DNA of 64,000 bases. Source: Thalassobaculaceae bacterium (GTDB taxonomy: Bacteria > Pseudomonadota > Alphaproteobacteria > Thalassobaculales > Thalassobaculaceae). A program made the translations under genes and the position numbers. The stretch is from NCBI GenBank assembly GCA_965213935.1, contig CBDCAO010000009.1:43536-107535 (forward strand), given 5' to 3'. Below, in pieces: positions 1 to 8,952 of this stretch. The stretch's first letter is position 1. Every line of letters begins with the position of its first letter. A model generated the notes under the pieces. That model saw nothing but the letters and a program-made list of their open reading frames with translations, was not told the DNA's origin and did not search any database.

Positions 1-804
1 GGCGAGACCGCCCGGGTTTCGCGCGAGGTCGCCGGCGCCATCGAGTCCTACCGGTTCAACGAGGCGGCCGGTTCGGTCTACCGGTTCTGCTGGAACATCT
101 TCTGCGACTGGTATCTCGAGTTCACCAAACCGCTGCTGGCCGGCGAGAACGAGGAGGTGGCAGCCGAGACCCGTGCGACGAGTGCCTGGGTGCTTCAGCA
201 GATGCTGAACGTGCTCAATCCGCTGATGCCGTACCTGACCGAGGAACTGTGGGAACGGCTCGGAGGGAAGGCGGCGCTCATCACCAACCCGTGGCCGGAC
301 CTCGACCGGTTCACCGGCGATGCCGGGGTTGCACACGAGATGGACTGGGTGATTCGCCTGATCACGGAAGTGCGCTCCATCCGTTCGGAAATGAACGTGC
401 CGCCCCGCGCCGAGGTCGACCTGTTTCTCGAAGGCGCCTCGGCGGACACGCTCGCCCGTCTCGATACCCACCGAACCATGATCATGCGCCTCGCACGGCT
501 CGCATCCATCAGCCCGCTCACCGGCCAGGTTCCGCACGGCGCGGCACAGAGCCTGCTCGACGAGGCAACGTTGGTCTTGCCGCTTGCCGACATCATTGAT
601 CTCGACCAGGAACGAACCCGGCTCTCCAGGGATCTTGCCAAGGCGCGAAGCGGCATTGCCGGGCTGAGACGCAAGCTTGCCAACCCGGCGTTCCGGGACC
701 GGGCGCCGCGCGAGGTTCTGGACACCAACCGGCAGCGCCTGGCCGCCGAACGCCAGAAGCGCGAGCAGCTGAAGGAGGCCCTGCGCAGGCTCGGCGCCGC
801 GTAG
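1..804 (+). CDS. valS: valine--tRNA ligase, C-terminal portion (5' end outside window)
   Basis: Frame is open from base 1 to TAG at 802-804. Translation has YRFNEAAGSVYRFCWNIFCDWYLEFTKP and the C-terminal coiled coil NPAFRDRAPREVLDTNRQRLAAERQKREQLKEAL typical of ValRS. Confidence 0.85.
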   Translation, partial: GETARVSREVAGAIESYRFNEAAGSVYRFCWNIFCDWYLEFTKPLLAGENEEVAAETRATSAWVLQQMLNVLNPLMPYLTEELWERLGGKAALITNPWPDLDRFTGDAGVAHEMDWVIRLITEVRSIRSEMNVPPRAEVDLFLEGASADTLARLDTHRTMIMRLARLASISPLTGQVPHGAAQSLLDEATLVLPLADIIDLDQERTRLSRDLAKARSGIAGLRRKLANPAFRDRAPREVLDTNRQRLAAERQKREQLKEALRRLGAA

Positions 805-813
805 CGGCTCCCG

Positions 814-2421
814 TCAGGCCGCGGCGCGTGCCTGGCGGTCCTCCCTGATCATGTCGGCGCCCTTTTCCGCCGCCATGATCACAGGCGCGTTGATGTTGCC
901 CGACGGCATGGTCGGAAAGATCGAGGCGTCGACGACGCGCAGACCCTCGAGACCATGGACCCTGAGCCTGTTGTCGACCACCGCCATCGGGTCATGACCC
1001 ATCTTGCAGGTTCCCATCGGGTGGTAGGTCGTCGCGCCGGTCTCGCGCGCAAATGCCAGCAAGTCGGCATCGCTGACGCAGTCCGCTCCCGGGTTCATTT
1101 CGTGGTCGATGTAGCGTCCGAGCGCCCTGGTCTGGCCGAGCGCCCGGCACACGTGCAGGCCCGAAACCAGGGTCTGCTGGTCGAGTTCCACCGTCAGGAA
1201 GTTCGGACGGATCTTCGGCGCCGCGAACGGGTCCGGGCCGCCGAGATGAATTGAGCCGACACTCTCGGGACGGCACTGGTAGACCGCAAGCGTCATGCCG
1301 GGCTCGCGCTCGAGCACCCGATCCCGGATCGAGCCGAAGCTGGCGTGCGCAAAGAAGAACTGGATGTCTGGTGTCTCCAGTTCCGGCCGGGTTCGGACGA
1401 ACCCGTGTCCGATACCGGCCGTCCAGGTCAGCGCGCCGCGTCGGGTGAGAACGTACTTCGCGACCTCGCCGACCAGCCGCAGCCCGCGGGTCTGCTCGTT
1501 CAGGGTGATCGGCCGGTTCACCCGCCAGTTCATCCTCGCGGCATAGTGGTCGCGGTAGTTCTCGCCAACGCCGGACAGCGCGTGACGGACCTCGATTCCG
1601 TGTTCGCGCAGCAGTTCCGGCTGACCGATGCCGGACAGTTCGAGGATCTGCGGCGACTGCACCGCACCGGCGCACAGGACGACCTCGAGGTTCGCGGTCT
1701 CGGTACGGGACTGGCCATTCTGCGACCAGGTCACACCGGTGACCCGCGTTCCCTCCATTTCGATCCGGGTGACATGGGCATTCGGCTCGATCCGCAGGTT
1801 CTGCCTGCCGCGCACCGGGTCCAGGAAGGCCCGGGCGGTGCTCTCGCGCCGGCCGTTGCGCTGGGTTATCTGGTAGTAGCCGAATCCGTCCTGACTGGCG
1901 CCGTTGTAGTCGGGGTTGCGTGGATAGCCGAGTTCCTCTCCGGCCTCGATGAAGGCATCAACGATCTCGTGGTGCTCGTACATGTCGGCCACGTTCATCG
2001 GCCCGCCGTCCCCGCGGTACTCGTCGCCGCCGCGTTCGAAGGATTCCGCCTTGCGGAAATACGGAAGGACGTCGGTGTACGACCAGCCGCGGTTTCCGAG
2101 CTGGGCCCAGACATCGTAGTCGAAGGCCTGGCCGCGGACGTAGAGCATGCCGTTGATCGAACTCGATCCCCCCAGCACCCGTCCGCGCGGGATCGGAATG
2201 GTTCGCCCCGCCAGCGCCTCGTCCGGTTCGGTCTCGAAACACCAGTTGACCTGCCGGTTGTTGAGCGTTCGGGTAAACCCGACCGGGATATGGATCCACG
2301 GGTTGCTGTCCTTGCCTCCGGCCTCGAGCAGCAGCACGCTGGTCCCCGGATCCTCGCTCAGGCGGTTCGCCATCACGCACCCGGCGGACCCTGCCCCGAT
2401 GATGATGTAATCGTATGCCAT
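814..2421 (-). CDS. GMC-family FAD oxidoreductase (choline/alcohol dehydrogenase-like)
   Basis: Start chosen at MAYDYIIIGAGSAGC (FAD Rossmann motif). GGSSSINGMLYVRG and C-terminal TTYHPMGTCKMG are GMC signatures. The longer ORF to 2577 is an upstream extension with no similarity. Confidence 0.85.
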   Translation of the reverse strand: MAYDYIIIGAGSAGCVMANRLSEDPGTSVLLLEAGGKDSNPWIHIPVGFTRTLNNRQVNWCFETEPDEALAGRTIPIPRGRVLGGSSSINGMLYVRGQAFDYDVWAQLGNRGWSYTDVLPYFRKAESFERGGDEYRGDGGPMNVADMYEHHEIVDAFIEAGEELGYPRNPDYNGASQDGFGYYQITQRNGRRESTARAFLDPVRGRQNLRIEPNAHVTRIEMEGTRVTGVTWSQNGQSRTETANLEVVLCAGAVQSPQILELSGIGQPELLREHGIEVRHALSGVGENYRDHYAARMNWRVNRPITLNEQTRGLRLVGEVAKYVLTRRGALTWTAGIGHGFVRTRPELETPDIQFFFAHASFGSIRDRVLEREPGMTLAVYQCRPESVGSIHLGGPDPFAAPKIRPNFLTVELDQQTLVSGLHVCRALGQTRALGRYIDHEMNPGADCVSDADLLAFARETGATTYHPMGTCKMGHDPMAVVDNRLRVHGLEGLRVVDASIFPTMPSGNINAPVIMAAEKGADMIREDRQARAAA

Positions 2422-2640
2422 CGCCTTTCCGTCCCTCCCGCTGTCGCTGTCAAGGCCAGCGCACAAGACTGCCCGCAAAACGCTGGCAATGGAATTGCGC
2501 TTTGCAGGTTTCGCGCTGTCATCAGGCCCGGGATGGTTGTTCCGGCGCACGAGCCACCGTGCGAACACGGGTGACACCGCAGGCGCAAGCCGATAGGGAT
2601 GGACACTGCAGGAGCATCAGGACCGCTGGAGGAGGAGCGC

Positions 2641-3441
2641 ATGGCGTCCGGCACACGACTTGAGGGCAAGATCGCGATCGTAACCGGTGGTGCCTCGGGC
2701 ATCGGCGCGGAAACCGCGCGCTGCTTTGCCGCCGAGGGAGCCAGGGTCGTGGTCGCCGACGTCCAGGACGAGCTCGGCGAAGAGGTCGTCGCCGGAATCG
2801 CCGCGACCGGCGGCGAAGCGGTCTGGAAGCGTCTCGACGTGGTCGATCGCGAGGCCTGGGAGGAGGTGGTCGCGGATACCATCTCGCTGTGGGGCGGGCT
2901 GCACGTGCTCGGCAATATAGCCGGCGTGTCCGGCCGCGACCCGACGATGACGCTGCAGACCACGATCACGCCGGGGCCGACCATCGAAGACACCACGCCC
3001 GAGATCTGGGAACGGGTGATGTCGGTCAACGTGACCGGGGTCTACCTGGGGACCAGGGCCGCGATACCGCCGATGCGCAGTTCCGGCGGCGGGTCGATCA
3101 TCAACATCTCGTCGATCTGTGGTCTGGTCGGCAGTTTCGGCAACGCCGCCTACCACGCTTCCAAGGGAGCTGTACGGATCTTCACCAAGGCAACGGCGGT
3201 TCAGCATGCAGTCGACGGCATCCGGGCGAATTCCATCCACCCGGGTTTCGTCGACACGCCGATGACGCGACCGGGCCATTCGAACAACGAGGTCGCCCGG
3301 GTCCGGCTCGCCGCCACACCGCTCGGTCGATTCGGAACGCCGCGTGACATTGCGCTCGGCTGCCTGTATCTCGCGGGCGACGAATCCTCCTGGGTCACCG
3401 GCAGCGAACTGGTGATCGACGGCGGCGTGACAGCGCAGTAG
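2641..3441 (+). CDS. SDR-family oxidoreductase
   Basis: GKIAIVTGGASGIG cofactor motif and NAAYHASKGAV (YxxxK) catalytic motif. Start is at the ATG giving MASGTRLEGK. Confidence 0.85.
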   Translation: MASGTRLEGKIAIVTGGASGIGAETARCFAAEGARVVVADVQDELGEEVVAGIAATGGEAVWKRLDVVDREAWEEVVADTISLWGGLHVLGNIAGVSGRDPTMTLQTTITPGPTIEDTTPEIWERVMSVNVTGVYLGTRAAIPPMRSSGGGSIINISSICGLVGSFGNAAYHASKGAVRIFTKATAVQHAVDGIRANSIHPGFVDTPMTRPGHSNNEVARVRLAATPLGRFGTPRDIALGCLYLAGDESSWVTGSELVIDGGVTAQ

Positions 3442-3474
3442 GCCTGTCGCCCCTTACACGACAGGAGTCGGAGA

Positions 3475-4650
3475 ATGATCAGCAAGTTTACCACCGTCTA
3501 TGCCGGTCACGTCGACCTGCCGGATATCGGCCAGCACACGACGCCGGCGAACGAACGTCGCTACGACAACGACCACCTGGCCAGCGTCTTCGCCAAGACC
3601 GAGAACATCGCGAAGACCATGGACGCCTGCGGCTACGAAATGCTGTGGCTGGCCGAGCACCATTTCCAGCACGAGGGCTACGAGGTCATTCCGAACATCC
3701 TGATGATGGCGGTCCATCTCGCGCATGTCACACCCAGGCTCAGAATCGGCTGCGGCTTCAACATCACCCCGATGTGGCATCCGCTGCGTCTGGCAGAGGA
3801 CTTTGCCACCGCCGACGTGCTCACCGGCGGGCGGACCGTCTTCGGGGTCGGCCGCGGCTACCACACCCGCGAGGTCGAGACCTTCGGCGCCCCGATGCAG
3901 GACCAGACCGCCAACCGGGACCTGTTCGAGGAACAGGTCGAGATCATGTTCAAGGCCTTCAATCAGGAGTCCTTCTCGCACCGGGGCCAGAACTACACCC
4001 TGCCGCCACGGGTCCCCTACCGCGGCTACGAGCTTGAGGAAATCACCCTGGTGCCGCGGCCGGTCAACCTGCCGGTGGAGTGCTGGCAACCGGTAGTCAG
4101 CGCCAATCCGCGCGGACTCGACTTCATGATCCGTCACGGCATCAATGGTGCGGTCGGCGGGGGTGCCGCGACCATGTCGGACGGTCCGATCCAGGCCTAC
4201 CGGGATGCCGCCGCCCGCGCCGGCCAGGAACTGGCACTGGGCGAGAACCTGACAGTGGGCATCTTCTGCCACCTCGCCGACACGCCGGAACAGGCGCTCG
4301 AGGAAATCACGCCGCTCTACGAAGAGCACGTGAAGATGTTCGGGCCGCTCGGCTTTGTCCCCGGGCTGACACCGGAGCAGGTCTCCATCACCCAGGGTCG
4401 CGGTGGCTGGTACGAGGCCGGCGTACCTCGGGTGCAGCACTTCATGGATCTCGGCGCCTGGTTTGCCGGAACCGCCGAACAGCTGGTCGAGCACCTGAAG
4501 GTGCTGGAGGCGCGCTACCCGGGAATGGAGCTGATCAACCTTTCGTGTCCGATGGGAACGCCGGAGCAGATGATGCTCGAGCAGTACCACCGGGTGGCGG
4601 AAGGAGTGATGCCCGCGTTCCGCACGCCGGCGTCGGCAGCAGCGGAGTAG
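3475..4650 (+). CDS. LLM-class (luciferase-like) flavin-dependent oxidoreductase
   Basis: 391-aa ORF with a GGAG-type RBS upstream. MLWLAEHHF and GRTVFGVGRGY motifs are typical of luciferase-like monooxygenases. Confidence 0.8.
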   Translation: MISKFTTVYAGHVDLPDIGQHTTPANERRYDNDHLASVFAKTENIAKTMDACGYEMLWLAEHHFQHEGYEVIPNILMMAVHLAHVTPRLRIGCGFNITPMWHPLRLAEDFATADVLTGGRTVFGVGRGYHTREVETFGAPMQDQTANRDLFEEQVEIMFKAFNQESFSHRGQNYTLPPRVPYRGYELEEITLVPRPVNLPVECWQPVVSANPRGLDFMIRHGINGAVGGGAATMSDGPIQAYRDAAARAGQELALGENLTVGIFCHLADTPEQALEEITPLYEEHVKMFGPLGFVPGLTPEQVSITQGRGGWYEAGVPRVQHFMDLGAWFAGTAEQLVEHLKVLEARYPGMELINLSCPMGTPEQMMLEQYHRVAEGVMPAFRTPASAAAE

Positions 4651-4738
4651 GAAGCCGGGACCGCGAGGTCTCCCGGGAAGTCATTCCCGGGGGGCACCGC
4701 AGCCCGTGTATCCGTCCGACCGGCAGGGGAGGCAAACG

Positions 4739-5450
4739 GCTGATCACGGGCGTCACGCTCGTCATCGCGGTCACCGACAGCGACTGGTTCAGCCACCTGC
4801 GGCAGCGCCTGGACCTTCGCGAAGTCAATTTCTGGTCGCCCTCGCCGAGGGCCTTCAAGGCCCTGCGGCCGGGCGAACTGTTCCTGTTCAAGCTGAAGGC
4901 CCCTCGTCACGCAATCGTCGGTGGCGGCATCTTCGCCCACCTGCTGCCGTGTTCACTCGCATGGAAGGCGTTCGGCGCATCGAACGGCGCCGATTCGGCG
5001 GAAGAGATGCACCAACTCATCGCCAGGTATCGCGAGGCGGATCCGAATGACCGCAGCGACTTTGCGATCGGATGCCGCATCCCGACCCAGCCATTCTTCC
5101 TCGACGAACCCGACTGGATCCCGTTGCCGGCGAACTTCCCGCCCGACATCATCAGGTTCAAGACCTGCACGACCGCCCGCGGCACCGTGTGGAGTCTTTA
5201 CCTGGAACACTATCCAATACTCACTGCCCCACGGAGCATGATCAACCGCAGCCTGGCCCGGTGTTTCGCTTCGCGATGAGGCGGGGGTCCGCAGCGAGGG
5301 TTCTTCAAGAGTCGGCGCCGGCGGGGAATTACGGGCGGAAAGGGTCTGCATCGAGAACATCTTGCCCTCGTGTGGGGCAGAACGACCAAGATTCAGGGGT
5401 GCTTCGCGTCGAACCGACGTCTGCGATGTCGAAGTGCAGACGCAGATGAG
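4739..5450 (+). pseudogene. decayed HNH-endonuclease-family gene (N-terminal domain retained, HNH part degraded)
   Basis: IAVTDSDWFSHLRQRLDLREVNFWSPSPRAFKALRPGELFLFKLKAPRHAIVGGGIF...IGCRIPTQPFFLDEPDWIPLPANFPPDII matches, from memory, the N-terminal domain of a widespread roughly 330-aa HNH endonuclease family. There is no ATG/GTG at the expected start. The frame ends at 5279 without an HNH domain. Only faint out-of-frame remnants (PGPVF..., CIENILP...RPRF) follow up to about 5450. Confidence 0.45.
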
Positions 5451-5504
5451 GACTCTTGAACCAGCCCGGTTCGGCAGACGACTTTCATGCTCATAACCGA
5501 GGCC

Positions 5505-6905
5505 CTACCAGTGACTTCGGGCTTCTGACCAGATTCGAGCAATATCGTGGTTATCGACCTGGTGTCTGATGACAAGCCATGAGACGCCGAACTCTCTGGC
5601 CAGCAGATCGATGTCATCTGCCAGGATGACGTGCGAGGATATTCTGTTCCGAATTGCATGAGCCGGGGCCAGAAACTCGGCCGCAAAGGCCCGGCCACGT
5701 TGTTGTCGCCAAGATCGGGCTCTGGTCAACACGGAGTTTGGTTCTGAAGCCACCCGGACATCAGCCAGAGCACGACAAAACAGGAATCGCCGGCTGCTGG
5801 CCCTCTTCGCCGAAAAAGCGAATGTGAATTTCCCGTCATCAACGCGGGAGATCACGCCCTCCAACATGTGCAAGTTGCCGAAAGATGTGGCGCGTGTTGC
5901 CTTCTCTACCTGTTCCGGCGGTTCCCCAAGTGCACGTGCCAGAGTATCCCACGTGGGTAACGGATCGTTGCCAAGTTCCAGTGACTGGCGCAGACTTCGC
6001 GCCAGAGCATATCCCTCCTTCCAGGGATTGGGCGGCACCTGTATCCCGGCATCGACATACCGCGTCGACTCAGCGTCTGGATCCGATCGAGTTTCAGACA
6101 CAAACCCGTTGTGCAGAACCTCGGTCACGATCCTCCTGAGGCCGAGGCTGTTTCGTCTTGCACGTCCGACGGCTTTCCGAAAGTCGGCGATGTCTGCGAT
6201 GAGGTCCTTCGCTGAAAGAACAGCCGCCGCTTCTTCAAGAGCATCTCCCGTCAGGACTTCGCCCAAACGCACGACAGACGCGAGTGCATCGTCGTTCAGT
6301 GCGTACGGATCCCAACCAAGTCCGCCTGCCGTCTTGCAGAATTCGGTTTCCTCTTTGTCAGCAGACTGAATTGCCGACCAGTCCTGTTCCAGCAGTGTAT
6401 TGTGAATGTGGAACTCATGAAGGCGAGCGATCACACTGTCGATCAGGTTTGCGCAACTCTTGTGCCAGGATGCTCTGTCGATCCACGTCCAACCCTGCTC
6501 AAGACTTGCGTGACGGAAACAGTCGGGATCATCGCGCTTCCATACGAGACGCACCAGATGTCCCGAAGAGACAATCTGCAAGTCAGGATAGCCATATCCT
6601 TCCCGACCGTACCTCAGGGAATGTCGACGATCAAATTCCCGATCGTTCTCCTTGTCGGGGCTTTCAAACTCGTACAGGAGAAACCACCAATTGCTGACCA
6701 GCCATTCGGCGAGCGGGTAAAGTGAAACAAAGACCATGTCTCGAATTGTTCTGGAACGTTCATCGAGCACCCTGGTAATGGTCGACTCTCCCACGTGGAT
6801 GCGAAGGGATGCCCAGGTCGCCGCCAGTTCAGGGCCCTCAACTCCATGCGCACTCATCCAGTCAAATTCGAACTCGATGCGTGTCCCGGCATCCCTAAAC
6901 ACCAT
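5505..6905 (-). CDS. hypothetical 466-aa protein; unknown Trp-rich N-terminal region plus C-terminal ImmA/IrrE (COG2856/M78)-like module lacking HExxH
   Basis: Long ORF in a stretch visibly less GC-rich than its neighbours, so it is unlikely to be a GC shadow ORF. The ATG overlaps the upstream ORF by 11 nt. The C-terminus RRFLFCRALADV...RGRAFAAEFLAPAHAIR...LAREFGVSWLVIRHQV follows the ImmA/IrrE layout. Confidence 0.75.
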   Translation of the reverse strand: MVFRDAGTRIEFEFDWMSAHGVEGPELAATWASLRIHVGESTITRVLDERSRTIRDMVFVSLYPLAEWLVSNWWFLLYEFESPDKENDREFDRRHSLRYGREGYGYPDLQIVSSGHLVRLVWKRDDPDCFRHASLEQGWTWIDRASWHKSCANLIDSVIARLHEFHIHNTLLEQDWSAIQSADKEETEFCKTAGGLGWDPYALNDDALASVVRLGEVLTGDALEEAAAVLSAKDLIADIADFRKAVGRARRNSLGLRRIVTEVLHNGFVSETRSDPDAESTRYVDAGIQVPPNPWKEGYALARSLRQSLELGNDPLPTWDTLARALGEPPEQVEKATRATSFGNLHMLEGVISRVDDGKFTFAFSAKRASSRRFLFCRALADVRVASEPNSVLTRARSWRQQRGRAFAAEFLAPAHAIRNRISSHVILADDIDLLAREFGVSWLVIRHQVDNHDIARIWSEARSHW

Positions 6906-7287
6906 CCGGCCACTCCGGCCCGTCCAGTGGATACCCCTTGTAGGAGCCTGTCGTGCGGTTGACTAACCGGCCTTCGTAGACCGTAGTGTCGTCACGGTAC
7001 CAGACGTAGCGTGGAAACCCTCCTTCCCACGGGGCACCGGTGATTCCGTTGCGGATAGCGGTCTTCACCCATTCACATGCGGTCTTCTGGTCTGAAATCG
7101 TTCTCGGGCAAATGGATGCGTCAGTTCGCGGTCGGGGTTGTCCAGCGAAGCCCGGTGCGTCCTTGTGCTCCACGCTGCCAACATATGTAACCCGCTCAGC
7201 CAACCTGTCGAGATCAGCACCGGGGGCCACGAAAATCTCTCGTCTTCTCGGGCGTCTGTGACGGCTGGCACACATTTGGAAAGTCAC
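6895..7287 (-). CDS. hypothetical small protein (up to 130 aa), first gene of the two-gene cassette
   Basis: The ORF stop overlaps the start of the 466-aa ORF (GGATGGTGTTTAG). The start is uncertain: GTG at 7287, ATG at 7275, or an internal GTG giving VAPGADLD. No family recognised. The conserved-looking core is VTYVGSVEHKD...WEGGFPRYVWYRDDTTVYEGRLVNRTTGSYKGYPL. Confidence 0.55.
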   Translation of the reverse strand: MTFQMCASRHRRPRRREIFVAPGADLDRLAERVTYVGSVEHKDAPGFAGQPRPRTDASICPRTISDQKTACEWVKTAIRNGITGAPWEGGFPRYVWYRDDTTVYEGRLVNRTTGSYKGYPLDGPEWPDGV

Positions 7288-7359
7288 CTGTGTGTTTCAT
7301 AGGCGACCATACAGATCGCCAGACCGATTTCTACCGAGGATGATGGCGCCGCCGCCGAG

Positions 7360-7549
7360 CTATCTGGATGTCAGGGCCTCAAGCACCAGCGATGCGGCCA
7401 GTTCGATTTCCGTATCGGTTGTGAAGCGGCCAAAGCTGAAACGGATCGACGCGTCGGCCTCTTCCGTCGACCGACCGAGAGCACGTAGCACATGAGACGG
7501 TTCTGCAATACCGGAGGCGCACGCGGCGCCGGTCGATGCAGCGAGGCGA
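7360..7549 (-). pseudogene. C-terminal stub of a cysteine desulfurase (NifS/IscS family)
   Basis: [57 protein letters not shown] matches the last ~60 residues of IscS/NifS (SSGSAC...PS.VL.A.G...IRFS.GRFTT..EI). Nothing corresponding to the first ~330 residues is present. Homology starts exactly where higA stops. Confidence 0.7.
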
Positions 7550-7855
7550 TCACGCGGGTTGATAGCGACGAACGTCGATTTCGTCGGCGCGTGCACGCAT
7601 CTGCCTGGCGTCGTGCCATGCCTGCATCCGCAACAGCAGGTCCATACTGAGGCCGAAGGCCTTCTCGACCCGCAGCGCCATTTCGGGCGACAGCGAGGCG
7701 TTGCCGTTCACCAGGTCCGAGAGCGTCGCACGGCGCACGCCGAGAATCCGCGCCGCCGCCGCAACGCTCAACCCCAACTCCTCAAGGGCTTCGATCCGGA
7801 TGAAGGTTCCGGGATGCGGGGGAGTCATCCCCGTCTTGATGCCCGCGTCGCTCAT
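7550..7855 (-). CDS. higA: HigA-family antitoxin (XRE-type HTH)
   Basis: 101 aa. [55 protein letters not shown] is the typical HigA/VapI HTH. The ATG overlaps the higB stop (TGATG). Confidence 0.85.
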
Positions 7856-8144
7856 CAGCGGTAATCCTCCAGGTTCACGCGCTCGATCCCGCCGTCCCGT
7901 TCCTCGAAGGTGATCCGCCAGTTGCCCGACATCGAGACACTCCACTCGTTGCGGCGCGCGCCGGACAGCCGCTGGACCCGCCATCCGGGCGCCGCCTCGC
8001 GGATGAAGCCTTCCATGGTCTCCGCCATGTCGAGCGCGCCGGGATGCCGCGCACGCGCTCCGCCAGGTCCTGTTTCAGCAGCCGGGACGAGTCGGTCTTG
8101 AAGAGCTGGCGCAAGCCCCGGTGGCGAAACGAACGGACGACCAT
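7855..8144 (-). pseudogene. higB: HigB toxin (RelE/ParE superfamily), frameshifted
   Basis: N-terminus MVVRSFRHRGLRQLFKTDSSRLLKQDLAERVR is in one frame (ATG 8142-8144). C-terminus ALDMAETMEGF...PGWRVQRLSGARRNEWSVSMSGNWRITFEERDGGIERVNLEDYR is in another. The span is 290 nt, not a multiple of 3, so about one base is missing near 8040-8055. Confidence 0.75.
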
Positions 8145-8152
8145 GCCTGTAT

Positions 8153-8173
8153 GTGTACGGCATGCCCGTACAC
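8153..8173. promoter_or_regulatory. perfect 8-bp inverted repeat just upstream of higB (candidate HigA operator)
   Basis: GTGTACGG-CATGC-CCGTACAC lies 9-29 nt upstream of the higB ATG. Confidence 0.5.
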
Positions 8174-8678
8174 ACCACAACCGTCTTCGATGGCCGCATG
8201 GTCCTGGAACGCGTGCACGGTGAGGCTGTTGAAAAAGGGCCTTATAGAGAAAAGTTGGTGCGCCAGGCTGACTGGTGGAATGCAGCCGGGTGAAAGTCCT
8301 GGCAGGAAGAGAGGTCAACCAGCCACTTCCTCCGTGAACCATGCGCCGGTCGCCGTGAGGCGGCAGGCGAAGCGTTGGGGAGCGGCAGGCGTGGGCCGGG
8401 CCATTGAGCCACGAGATCTTGTGAAACCGGAGTGCCGAGGCTGTCAACTTGGCTGAAGGCAACACTCTTCCGAGCCGCTTTGGTGAGGCAAGGAGAGGCT
8501 CCGCGGGGTCTGAGAACCATGGCACCCCGCCATGCGCCCCGCCCGGATGGATCGACCGGCCGACGAGAGCCCCGGCGCCGCCCGGTACTTCGCCTCTCGG
8601 GCAGGTCAGGATCTGCGCTGCGCACGCCGGGGTTACTCTCCCTGGACCTTCGAACACGCGGGAAAGCGCACGGTCACG

Positions 8679-8745: not shown

Positions 8746-8820
8746 TGGCTCCCCGGGACGGATTCGAACCGCCGGCCAAGCGGTTAACAGCCGCTTGCTC
8801 TACCGCTGAGCTACCGGGGA
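8746..8820 (-). tRNA. tRNA-Asn (anticodon GTT)
   Basis: Minus strand TCCCCGGTAGCTCAGCGGTAGAGCAAGCGGCTGTTAACCGCTTGGCCGGCGGTTCGAATCCGTCCCGGGGAGCCA. It has a 7-bp acceptor stem, a CT-GTT-AA anticodon loop, GGTTCGAATCC T-arm and encoded CCA. Confidence 0.95.
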
Positions 8821-8878: not shown

Positions 8879-8952
8879 TGGAGGCCCGGGCCGGAATCGA
8901 ACCGACGTACAAGGATTTGCAGTCCTCTGCATCACCACTCTGCCACCGGGCC
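8879..8952 (-). tRNA. tRNA-Cys (anticodon GCA)
   Basis: Minus strand GGCCCGGTGGCAGAGTGGTGATGCAGAGGACTGCAAATCCTTGTACGTCGGTTCGATTCCGGCCCGGGCCTCCA. It has an acceptor stem GGCCCGG/CCGGGCC, a CT-GCA-AA loop and encoded CCA. Confidence 0.95.

Follow-up and report, generated by a model that had tools for sequence, protein, structure and literature searches.

The question posed by this locus is what two overlapping genes, one small and one large, are for. They lie on the minus strand of a 64,000-nucleotide (nt) stretch of the genome of a Thalassobaculaceae bacterium (assembly GCA_965213935.1, contig CBDCAO010000009.1, positions 43,536 to 107,535), the whole of which we refer to as the window. An earlier note had singled the pair out as a cassette without any nameable relative, possibly encoding an effector and a large sensor or antitoxin. 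Here we describe it as a real, very widespread and wholly unannotated two-gene module for which comparison of sequences provides strong evidence of toxin-antitoxin (TA) behaviour. We put the probability at about two in three (0.66) that the cassette is a self-contained and horizontally mobile TA module of the addiction or abortive type, with an antitoxin domain related by descent to that of RosmerTA, a system reportedly described by Millman in 2022 and validated by Ernits in 2023. This reading is built upon the anatomy of the cassette, the linkage of its genes and their asymmetric loss, the charges of the two proteins, the predicted fold of the large protein and the disappearance of its catalytic residues, all of which the analysis shows.

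Both open reading frames (ORFs; 6895..7287 and 5505..6905) are intact and have the lengths first given for them, 130 and 466 amino acids (aa). Since the ATG of the large gene occupies 6905-6903 and the TAG of the small gene 6897-6895, the two overlap by 11 nt (ATGGTGTTTAG, window 6895-6905, in the junction context ...CCGGATGGTGTTTAGGG...). The true start of the small gene is probably the ATG at 7275-7273, giving a 126-aa product that begins MCASRHRRPRRR, because the N-termini of its homologues match this position: in almost all of 138 loci the small protein starts M/V-R-A-P-R-R-R-R-P-R-R-R, usually 7-10 nt after a GGAGGA-type site (GGAGGA/AGGA). The expectation that the two genes are co-translated is borne out across the family, as in every one of the 136 intact pairs (one mis-assigned start set aside) the stop of the small gene and the start of the large gene either overlap by 1-26 nt (most commonly 8, 4 or 14) or lie no more than 23 nt apart. 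These overlaps indicate that the 11-nt overlap in the window may serve translational coupling of the two genes. No sigma-70 promoter, terminator or operator palindrome was found around the cassette, and a conserved upstream palindrome was likewise not found.

The same arrangement is present in more than 200 independent loci, and the co-occurrence of the two genes that the earlier note had proposed as a check is therefore confirmed. The dependence between them runs in one direction. When loci were collected through the small gene (in contigs of JGI metagenomes and a single contig of IMG/VR, counting those that extend at least 600 nt beyond the gene on its downstream side), the large gene was found directly downstream in 67/67, and it was also present in all shorter loci of this kind that had any downstream room. 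When loci were collected through the large gene, the small gene was intact in 61 of 80 and absent, 5'-truncated or frameshifted in the remaining 19. Among these 19 it is missing altogether in 7-8 loci, survives as a 3' stump in others (for example L004, L007, L008, L013 and L039) and is frameshifted in L015, L029, L035 and L046, and the large reading frame is nonetheless intact in 17 of them.

Sister strains of the organism itself, which is a sponge symbiont, have undergone such a loss. Twenty-two contigs from sponge metagenomes, including MKWU01 from the Aplysina aerophoba assembly (Horn et al. 2016), carry an intact large gene, whereas the small gene is reduced to its last 28 codons. They match positions 1..6979 of the window at 96% nucleotide identity and then diverge, and since the shared region ends at 6979, only codons 103-130 of the small gene are kept. 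The ratio of non-synonymous to synonymous substitution rates (dN/dS) between the window and the orphan sister copy is 0.42 for the large gene and 0.06 for the adjacent luciferase-like gene, a small sample comprising 26 differences. The opposite situation, a pseudogenised large gene, was encountered at a single locus (L152), and there the small gene has itself mutated at three otherwise invariant positions (W87C, R54L and P120A). Across 115 loci, furthermore, the pairwise identities of one protein are correlated with those of the other (r = 0.80), with a mean of 60% in the better conserved small protein and of 41% in the large. In the sister strains, the sequence upstream of codon 103 contains a 369-aa ORF of unrecognised function, a D12-methyltransferase-like gene and an IS66 transposase, and the HigBA genes, intron fragment and tRNA genes that lie near the cassette in the window do not adjoin the large gene.

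Some loci depart from the simple pair in other ways. In two Spirochaetia metagenome-assembled genomes (MAGs; L036 and L038, 6001-8086) the large gene is broken after about 230 codons, and the interruption holds a fragment (6658-6786) matching the last 35 or so residues of the small protein, so that the cassette there looks rearranged or partly duplicated. At L126, a complete pair is followed after about 570 nt by a second, divergent large-type gene (6247-7422, 27% identity) that has no small gene of its own and may be a paralogous orphan antitoxin.

Taken with the charges of the two proteins, these patterns indicate which partner is which. The large protein is acidic (isoelectric point, pI, 5.85; net charge -12.6 over residues 1-265) and the small protein is basic (pI 9.15). 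Because of the asymmetry of loss, this basic/acidic pairing and the conserved overlap, the small protein would be the toxin and the large protein the antitoxin, which is the polarity that had been suggested on first inspection. Features generic to type II TA systems are present, in that the module is bicistronic, co-inherited and mobile, with a component resembling a toxin that is dispensable and one resembling an antitoxin that is retained. In architecture, as had been remarked, it departs from the small pairs of classical type II systems.

The large family has a fixed architecture of 430-470 aa, and its N-terminal 264 residues are seen in this architecture only. An AlphaFold2 (AF2) model of the window protein (predicted local distance difference test, pLDDT, 85.9; predicted template modelling score, pTM, 0.84) resolves an N-terminal domain, an all-helical middle region, a disordered linker and a C-terminal α/β domain (Table 1). 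The N-terminal domain had been thought unrecognisable; in the model it is composed of two repeats of four strands and a helix (first repeat E10-16, E31-38, E46-55, E58-61 and H62-78; second repeat E109-113, E117-122, E132-134, E138-143 and H144-164, where E is a strand and H a helix). This is the ββββα-ββββα topology by which the sPC4L/Whirly-like fold, known from CdiI, is defined, a predicted similarity of fold for which homology is not established. Foldseek matches to the domain include CdiI of B. dolosa (5ffp_A, probability 0.90, TMt 0.52), PUR-alpha and MRP1/2 (E 0.2-0.8).

The C-terminal domain is related to the ImmA/IrrE peptidases (Peptidase_M78, PF06114). The window copy scores 14.6 bits (E 0.029) against the Pfam model, the cut-off of which is 22 bits, and homologues score 25-30 bits (P0139 27.7, P0157 30.2 and P0169 26.8) over profile positions 38-122. 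By structure, Foldseek matches include CapP (7t5t, E 5.8e-3, probability 1.0), PrpR of M. tuberculosis (6cz6, E 0.16, probability 0.90) and IrrE (3dti), and 22 of 27 large homologues match the PADLOC models of RmrA (PDLC03955, best E 2.2e-7) and capP. The cassette is thus not without nameable relatives, as the large family is tied through its M78 domain to RmrA and CapP. The resemblance of the C-terminus to ImmA/IrrE that had been noticed is real, though weak in the window copy; it extends over about 170 residues rather than 110, and it does not include the active site. Searches of PDB sequences with a profile of the whole large family, or of the C-terminal domain alone, gave no match, and Pfam detected no HTH_3/XRE helix-turn-helix (HTH) in the window protein.

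The HExxH motif is present in 0 of 141 full-length members of the large family, which reach down to about 25% identity. In its place the predominant sequence is F-C-R-[A/G]-L-x-E, with the Cys position varying in a few members, and distant plasmid copies read A-R-A-[VI]-G-D. A canonical M78 protein found near one of the pairs (L106) served as the reference for the active-site comparison: KRFIIAHELGH ... EERAANEYAAELLMP in this peptidase corresponds to RRFHFCRALAE ... ERQQRNRAFAAEFLAP in the large family. In the window the pseudo-active site consists of F376-C-R-A-L-A-D382 and SWRQQRGRAFAAEFLAP, the H-E-x-x-H positions being R378-A379-L-A-D382, and the canonical EERAAN region reads RQQRGR. Since hhalign of the C-terminal profile against the canonical L106 protein aligned the FAAEFLxP helix region alone, the position of the replaced HExxH rests on the Pfam profile coordinates and the RF..A anchor. 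On these alignments the C-terminal domain is a repurposed, non-proteolytic ImmA/IrrE module, and having lost HExxH it cannot act as an ordinary peptidase or regulator. The reference peptidase (L106/L107, 3325-4044 on the minus strand, intact HELGH, PF06114 E 2.2e-11) is encoded some 1.25 kb beyond the downstream end of the pair, on the other strand of the metagenome contig.

The small protein has no such relatives, as had been anticipated. The window copy finds no match in Pfam, NCBIfam, PADLOC, PHROGs or PDB sequences, Pfam likewise finds none for 44 diverse members, and neither the window copy nor these members match an HTH or other DNA-binding family in Pfam. The AF2 model (pLDDT 80) comprises an unstructured Arg-rich tail, a short helix (26-32), a long loop carrying the motifs Y-x-G-S-x-E-H-K and D-A-S-x-C-P, a helix (67-79) and a four-stranded antiparallel meander (83-121; strands 83-88, 91-99, 102-110 and 115-121) with the motifs F-P-R-Y-V-W, E-G-R-L and G-x-Y-K-G-Y-P-L. 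Residues invariant or at least 90% conserved in 23 close homologues include Y35, G37, S38, E40, H41, K42, C60 and P61 and, further on, F91-W96, E105, R107, G114, Y116 and K117; Glu105 and Arg107 do not vary in the closer homologues. Across the 44 diverse members H41 and P92 alone are invariant, and Y35, G37, S38, K42, C60, W96, G114 and Y116 are conserved in at least 90%.

The modelled core of one helix and a four-stranded antiparallel sheet agrees with the BECR core, which is defined as a helix plus a four-stranded antiparallel sheet (PMC12065111). In addition, 8 of the 44 diverse members match the PADLOC model of NsnC (E 9e-4 to 0.07, over about 40 residues); in the match inspected, residues 86-125 of the small protein correspond to positions 221-258 of the 263 in the model, which are the C-terminal strands of the C-terminal BECR ribonuclease (RNase) domain of NsnC. 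A BECR-like RNase would be the likeliest activity of the small protein on the strength of this predicted core, the weak NsnC matches and the Arg-rich tail, an assignment that we offer tentatively and against which the odds still lean. RelE and ParE appear only among its insignificant Foldseek matches (probability below 0.1). A likeness of GS[WY]KGY to YafQ turned out, by hhalign, to be a 10-residue coincidence, and apparent N-terminally extended 'fusion' versions of the small domain were traced to mis-called starts or to frameshift fusions of the small and large genes rather than to trafficking domains.

Searches placed 611 clusters at 90% identity, and 721 at 50% identity when a profile was used, in the small-protein family, and 790 homologous clusters in the large-protein family. 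Nearly all are unnamed or labelled 'hypothetical', although 'ImmA/IrrE family metallo-endopeptidase' is the name given to a few of the large proteins. When each species was represented by one genome, a scan recovered at least 487 loci encoding the large protein, of which the best 80 (L001-L080) form the set anchored on the large gene. These 80 are MAGs from more than 10 phyla at 40-67% identity; they include Alpha- and Gammaproteobacteria, Binatia, Acidobacteriota, Latescibacterota and Dehalococcoidia, together with Spirochaetia, Gemmatimonadota, Rhodothermales, Acidimicrobiales and Entotheonella. That identity is so similar (40-50%) across more than 10 phyla suggests horizontal spread within the sponge and coral habitat, and all of the best 80 are in MAGs whose taxa typically belong to the microbiomes of sponges or corals. 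A sponge-specific distribution was nevertheless rejected, because many JGI matches carry soil- or sediment-type contig identifiers; it is the more distant members that do so (habitat being read from the names), and sponge-type MAG taxa dominate only the clade closest to the window.

The flanks of the cassette are variable, and across loci only the small and large genes are conserved, with no third conserved gene or operon found beside the pair when neighbourhoods were compared. What lies closest to the pair, in about 70 genomes, is predominantly metabolic, and HNH, transposase and PIN genes account for a handful of these neighbours. Distant copies of the pair occur on plasmids of cultured bacteria, namely Tistrella mobilis pTM2 (L168) and A. 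tumefaciens cl001 pAt2 (L169), and in Massilia sp. H6; on pAt2, a conjugative Agrobacterium plasmid, the pair lies between two restriction-endonuclease genes and beside an integrase. The small gene is missing from the gene table of pTM2, and a Rhizobium etli plasmid gave a large-type match only, annotated as an ArsR-family regulator. The trough in GC content (see below), the spread across more than 10 phyla, the variable flanks and the plasmid copies all point to a cassette that is horizontally mobile.

The surroundings in the window fit this picture in several respects. GC content is 0.556-0.606 over 5001-7500 and 0.626-0.706 (mostly 0.64-0.69) in the flanking bins, so the lower GC reported earlier holds, and the neighbours then listed, HigBA, the tRNA-Asn and tRNA-Cys genes and a truncated gene with HNH-annotated homologues, are all present (Table 1). 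The HNH-like remnant matches only the N-terminal part of its plasmid homologues (Mesorhizobium and Deinococcus, 41-51% identity) and has no Pfam match. It recurs in close relatives only (L001 and L162-L167), and the idea of an HNH gene as a recurrent neighbour of the cassette was dropped on that account. Between the HigB-like ORF and tRNA-Asn there is a strong Rfam match to a group II intron, which is probably a remnant because there is no space for the remaining intron ahead of the tRNA genes. Another gene fragment seems to have been left immediately upstream of the cassette, where a 78-aa ORF is similar to the very end of the C-terminus of a class-V aminotransferase (a NifS/IscS-type cysteine desulfurase). 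The cassette thus has several gene remnants beside it.

Table 1. Features of the cassette and of its surroundings in the window (positions are those of the 64,000-nt stretch).
Feature	Position	Strand	Details
Small gene (candidate toxin)	6895..7275	-	126 aa from ATG 7275; mechanical ORF reaches GTG 7287 (130 aa); pI 9.15
Large gene (candidate antitoxin/immunity protein)	5505..6905	-	466 aa; ATG start; pI 5.85
Overlap of small-gene stop (TAG 6897-6895) and large-gene start (ATG 6905-6903)	6895..6905	-	11 nt
Shine-Dalgarno-like AGGTGA	7284..7289	-	8 nt upstream of ATG 7275; read from sequence
Homology breakpoint with sister-strain contigs	6979	.	blastn and tblastn of the window against L162-L167; contig gene tables
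N-terminal domain, residues 10-164	6414..6878	-	Two ββββα repeats (sPC4L/Whirly/PUR/CdiI-like); AF2
All-helical middle region, residues 171-265	6111..6395	-	AF2 secondary structure
Disordered linker, residues 268-289	6039-6104	-	AF2 pLDDT
C-terminal ImmA/IrrE (Peptidase_M78)-like α/β domain, residues 294-460	5526..6026	-	Without catalytic residues
Pseudo-active-site helix F376-C-R-A-L-A-D382	5760..5780	-	In place of x-A-H-E-x-x-H
HNH-like gene remnant	4746-5276	+	Truncated ORF
Aminotransferase-like 78-aa ORF	7363-7596	-	Pfam E 0.041, profile positions 332-369 of 371
HigBA	7553-8199		HigA-type HTH protein (HTH_3, E 1.5e-11) and weak HigB-like ORF (E 0.0032)
Group II intron D1-D4 match (probable remnant)	8293-8518	+	RF02005, 140 bits, E 4.9e-41
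tRNA-Asn	8746-8820		
tRNA-Cys	8879-8952		

A model of how such a module might work can be put forward. The small and large genes would be transcribed together and translated in coupled fashion. The small basic protein of about 126 aa, with its Arg-rich tail and its compact core of a helix and four strands, would be the toxin, its most widely conserved residues being His41, Lys42, Tyr35, Ser38, Cys60, Trp96 and Tyr116, and would most probably act on RNA as a BECR-like ribonuclease. The acidic large protein would neutralise it stoichiometrically by direct binding, most likely through the acidic N-terminal ββββα×2 (sPC4L/CdiI-like) domain. The ImmA/IrrE-like domain could then be a regulatory, signal-sensing or oligomerisation module that times the release of the toxin, the sensor role being pure conjecture. 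Loss, titration or a conformational switch of the antitoxin would free the toxin and arrest growth, probably via RNA. By analogy with RosmerTA the module might also take part in phage defence, of which its neighbourhoods give no indication.

Several observations weigh against the cassette being a TA module of this kind. We infer toxicity, direct binding, an RNA target and a trigger from comparison. The window copy of the large protein falls below the Pfam cut-off for M78, gives no RmrA match at E<=0.1 and matches capP alone, at 0.026. For the small protein, Foldseek returned nothing significant from PDB or BFVD (best E about 0.3-1), the NsnC matches are weak, hhalign of the family with E. coli YafQ, YoeB and RelE gave nothing, and residues 41-66 of the model, which hold several of the invariant residues, are of low confidence. 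Enrichment in defence islands, which the earlier note had wished to see checked, was not seen among the nearest neighbours in about 70 genomes, and in phages the family occurs in 0 of 50,697 INPHARED records and on one IMG/VR contig only. Finally, orphan large genes persist in many lineages, and the large protein could therefore have a function of its own.

Persistence of this kind would also suit a pair that is not toxic at all, for instance a small protein that binds nucleic acids and the chaperone or adaptor dedicated to it, mobile for some purpose outside addiction or defence. Neither protein can be assigned to an enzymatic family, the neighbours are mostly housekeeping genes, and the orphan large genes keep intact frames. 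We regard this as improbable nonetheless, as the one-way dependency, the frequent decay of the small gene and the patchy spread across phyla are hallmarks of selfish TA systems, and the orphan large-gene dN/dS of 0.42 against 0.06 (from 26 differences) fits a redundant antitoxin better. The same asymmetry, in which the small gene is lost and the large gene kept and never the reverse, is unexpected if the small protein is a repressor or substrate and the large protein a signal-activated protease or anti-repressor of a neighbouring operon, as in regulatory pairs of the ImmR/ImmA, DdrO/IrrE or CapH/CapP type. Such pairs too consist of two adjacent genes and have homologous domains, CapP is stimulated by single-stranded DNA, and in other proteins the fold of the N-terminal domain (Whirly/PUR) binds single-stranded nucleic acids. 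However, with HExxH in none of the 141 members there would be no proteolysis by the known mechanism, the small protein matches no HTH or DNA-binding family, and no conserved third gene or operon adjoins the pair; a regulatory role of this type is accordingly very improbable. Harder still to credit is a reversed polarity, with the large protein as the harmful component and the small basic protein as its inhibitor or antitoxin. The classical Xre-COG2856 prediction reportedly proposed the COG2856 peptidase as the toxin, and an antitoxin-first order, which this polarity would imply, is the commonest among type II TA systems. Yet it is the large gene that often survives alone and the small gene that never does, the large protein is devoid of catalytic residues, its ImmA-domain counterpart in RosmerTA was shown to be the antitoxin, and a basic small protein with an acidic large one is the usual charge pattern of toxin and antitoxin.

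Two further explanations keep the toxin and change what it does. The first is that an exported polymorphic toxin and its immunity protein serve antagonism between bacteria or between symbiont and host. The small protein stands alone (126-133 aa) with no signal peptide, hydrophobic segment or trafficking domain (LXG, PAAR, RHS, CdiA and so on), secretion-system genes do not recur nearby, and an immunity protein of 466 aa with a regulator-type domain would be atypical. These points make export a rather remote prospect, even though the gene order runs from toxin to immunity, the large N-terminal domain shares its fold with CdiI immunity proteins, the toxin is the more conserved of the two, the closest relatives live in dense sponge-associated communities and targeting or uptake might conceivably be signalled by the Arg-rich N-terminus. 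The second, which we hold to be unlikely while taking it more seriously, is that the small protein founds a toxin family of new fold or new chemistry instead of being a BECR RNase, and that the dead ImmA/IrrE domain of its partner, with the Cys-Arg-x-Leu-x-Glu motif, is a true sensor which releases it, amounting to a new and widespread mechanism of abortive infection with a pseudo-peptidase as its trigger. His41-Lys42, Cys60, Tyr116 and the Arg-rich tail would then be candidates for the chemistry of the toxin, the signal might be single-stranded nucleic acid, a metal or a phage protein, and the module would have been transferred horizontally among sponge symbionts and soil bacteria.

If the mobile TA module that we favour is confirmed, the small proteins would constitute a large unannotated toxin family of more than 700 clusters at 50% identity, from more than 10 phyla, without a Pfam model or a structural relative, and extending to sponge symbionts, soils, sediments, plasmids of cultured Alphaproteobacteria and a Massilia. 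It would mean that proteolysis is not indispensable to the ImmA/IrrE antitoxin domain of Rosmer-type systems, which bears on how RmrA-type antitoxins neutralise and release their toxins, and it would supply an intracellular example of the sPC4L/Whirly fold as a toxin-binding module. The availability of orthologous pairs in the culturable A. tumefaciens cl001 (pAt2), Tistrella mobilis (pTM2) and Massilia sp. H6 makes these predictions directly testable.

How, then, does the cassette relate to systems that are already known? Several share individual features with it. Like the HigBA genes next door, it appears to be toxin-first with overlapping genes and occupies the same mobile patch, although the proteins are unrelated and the HigA antitoxin is a small HTH protein. 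Like the BECR toxins (RelE, YafQ and YoeB, and the PB-BECR1 protein NsnC of Menshen), its small protein is small, basic and stand-alone, with conserved His, Lys, Glu, Arg and Tyr residues; it differs in its long conserved loop (33-66) and Arg-rich tail, which are not known there, and in giving no significant Foldseek, Pfam or hhalign match. The sPC4L fold is a scaffold both for the binding of nucleic acids, in PurA, MRP and Whirly, and for the binding of toxins by immunity proteins, including 5FFP_A and 4NTQ_B (PMC9424270). The large N-terminal domain shares the ββββα-ββββα topology of the CdiI immunity proteins and of Whirly, PUR and MRP. However, its structural matches (5FFP_A, PUR-alpha and MRP1/2) are weak, at E 0.2-0.8, and no similarity was found at the level of sequence; moreover, it shares one chain with a helical region and a pseudo-peptidase within an intracellular two-gene unit.

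The C-terminal domain invites comparison with two groups of proteins. ImmA/ImmR, IrrE/DdrO and CapP/CapH have a homologous M78 fold, are encoded by two adjacent genes and use the domain as a signal-responsive module, as may also be the case here. They are nevertheless active Zn peptidases that cleave an XRE repressor, whereas in the cassette the catalytic and ligand residues have been replaced, the partner is not an HTH protein and there is no regulated operon. A precedent for a non-catalytic domain of this type is PrpR of M. tuberculosis (6CZ6), in which an IrrE-like (DUF955) domain without HEXXH binds ligands (PMC6765138). As a transcription factor, PrpR differs from the large protein in having an HTH, a GAF-like domain, a [4Fe4S] cluster and coenzyme A (CoA), none of which was detected in the cassette.

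The closest known system, as far as sequences allow a judgement, is RosmerTA. Here diverse and often unclassifiable RmrT toxins are paired with the RmrA antitoxin, which bears an ImmA protease domain and has been confirmed experimentally as the antitoxin, and the toxin gene comes first in 58% of cases (PMC10440598). The cassette resembles it as a two-gene unit of candidate toxin and antitoxin with the toxin first, an antitoxin carrying an M78 domain and a toxin of no recognisable family, as is true of several RmrT proteins. It does not appear to be a member of RosmerTA, because its M78 domain lacks HExxH (0/141), its large protein has no N-terminal XRE HTH and possesses instead a 265-residue family-specific sPC4L-like and helical region, it has one fixed toxin partner with no partner swapping, and its small protein matches no RmrT model. 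Since the antitoxin domain ties it to the Rosmer/ImmA TA systems, the cassette is less exotic than the earlier note suggested, and on present comparisons it appears to be neither a RosmerTA member nor categorically new.

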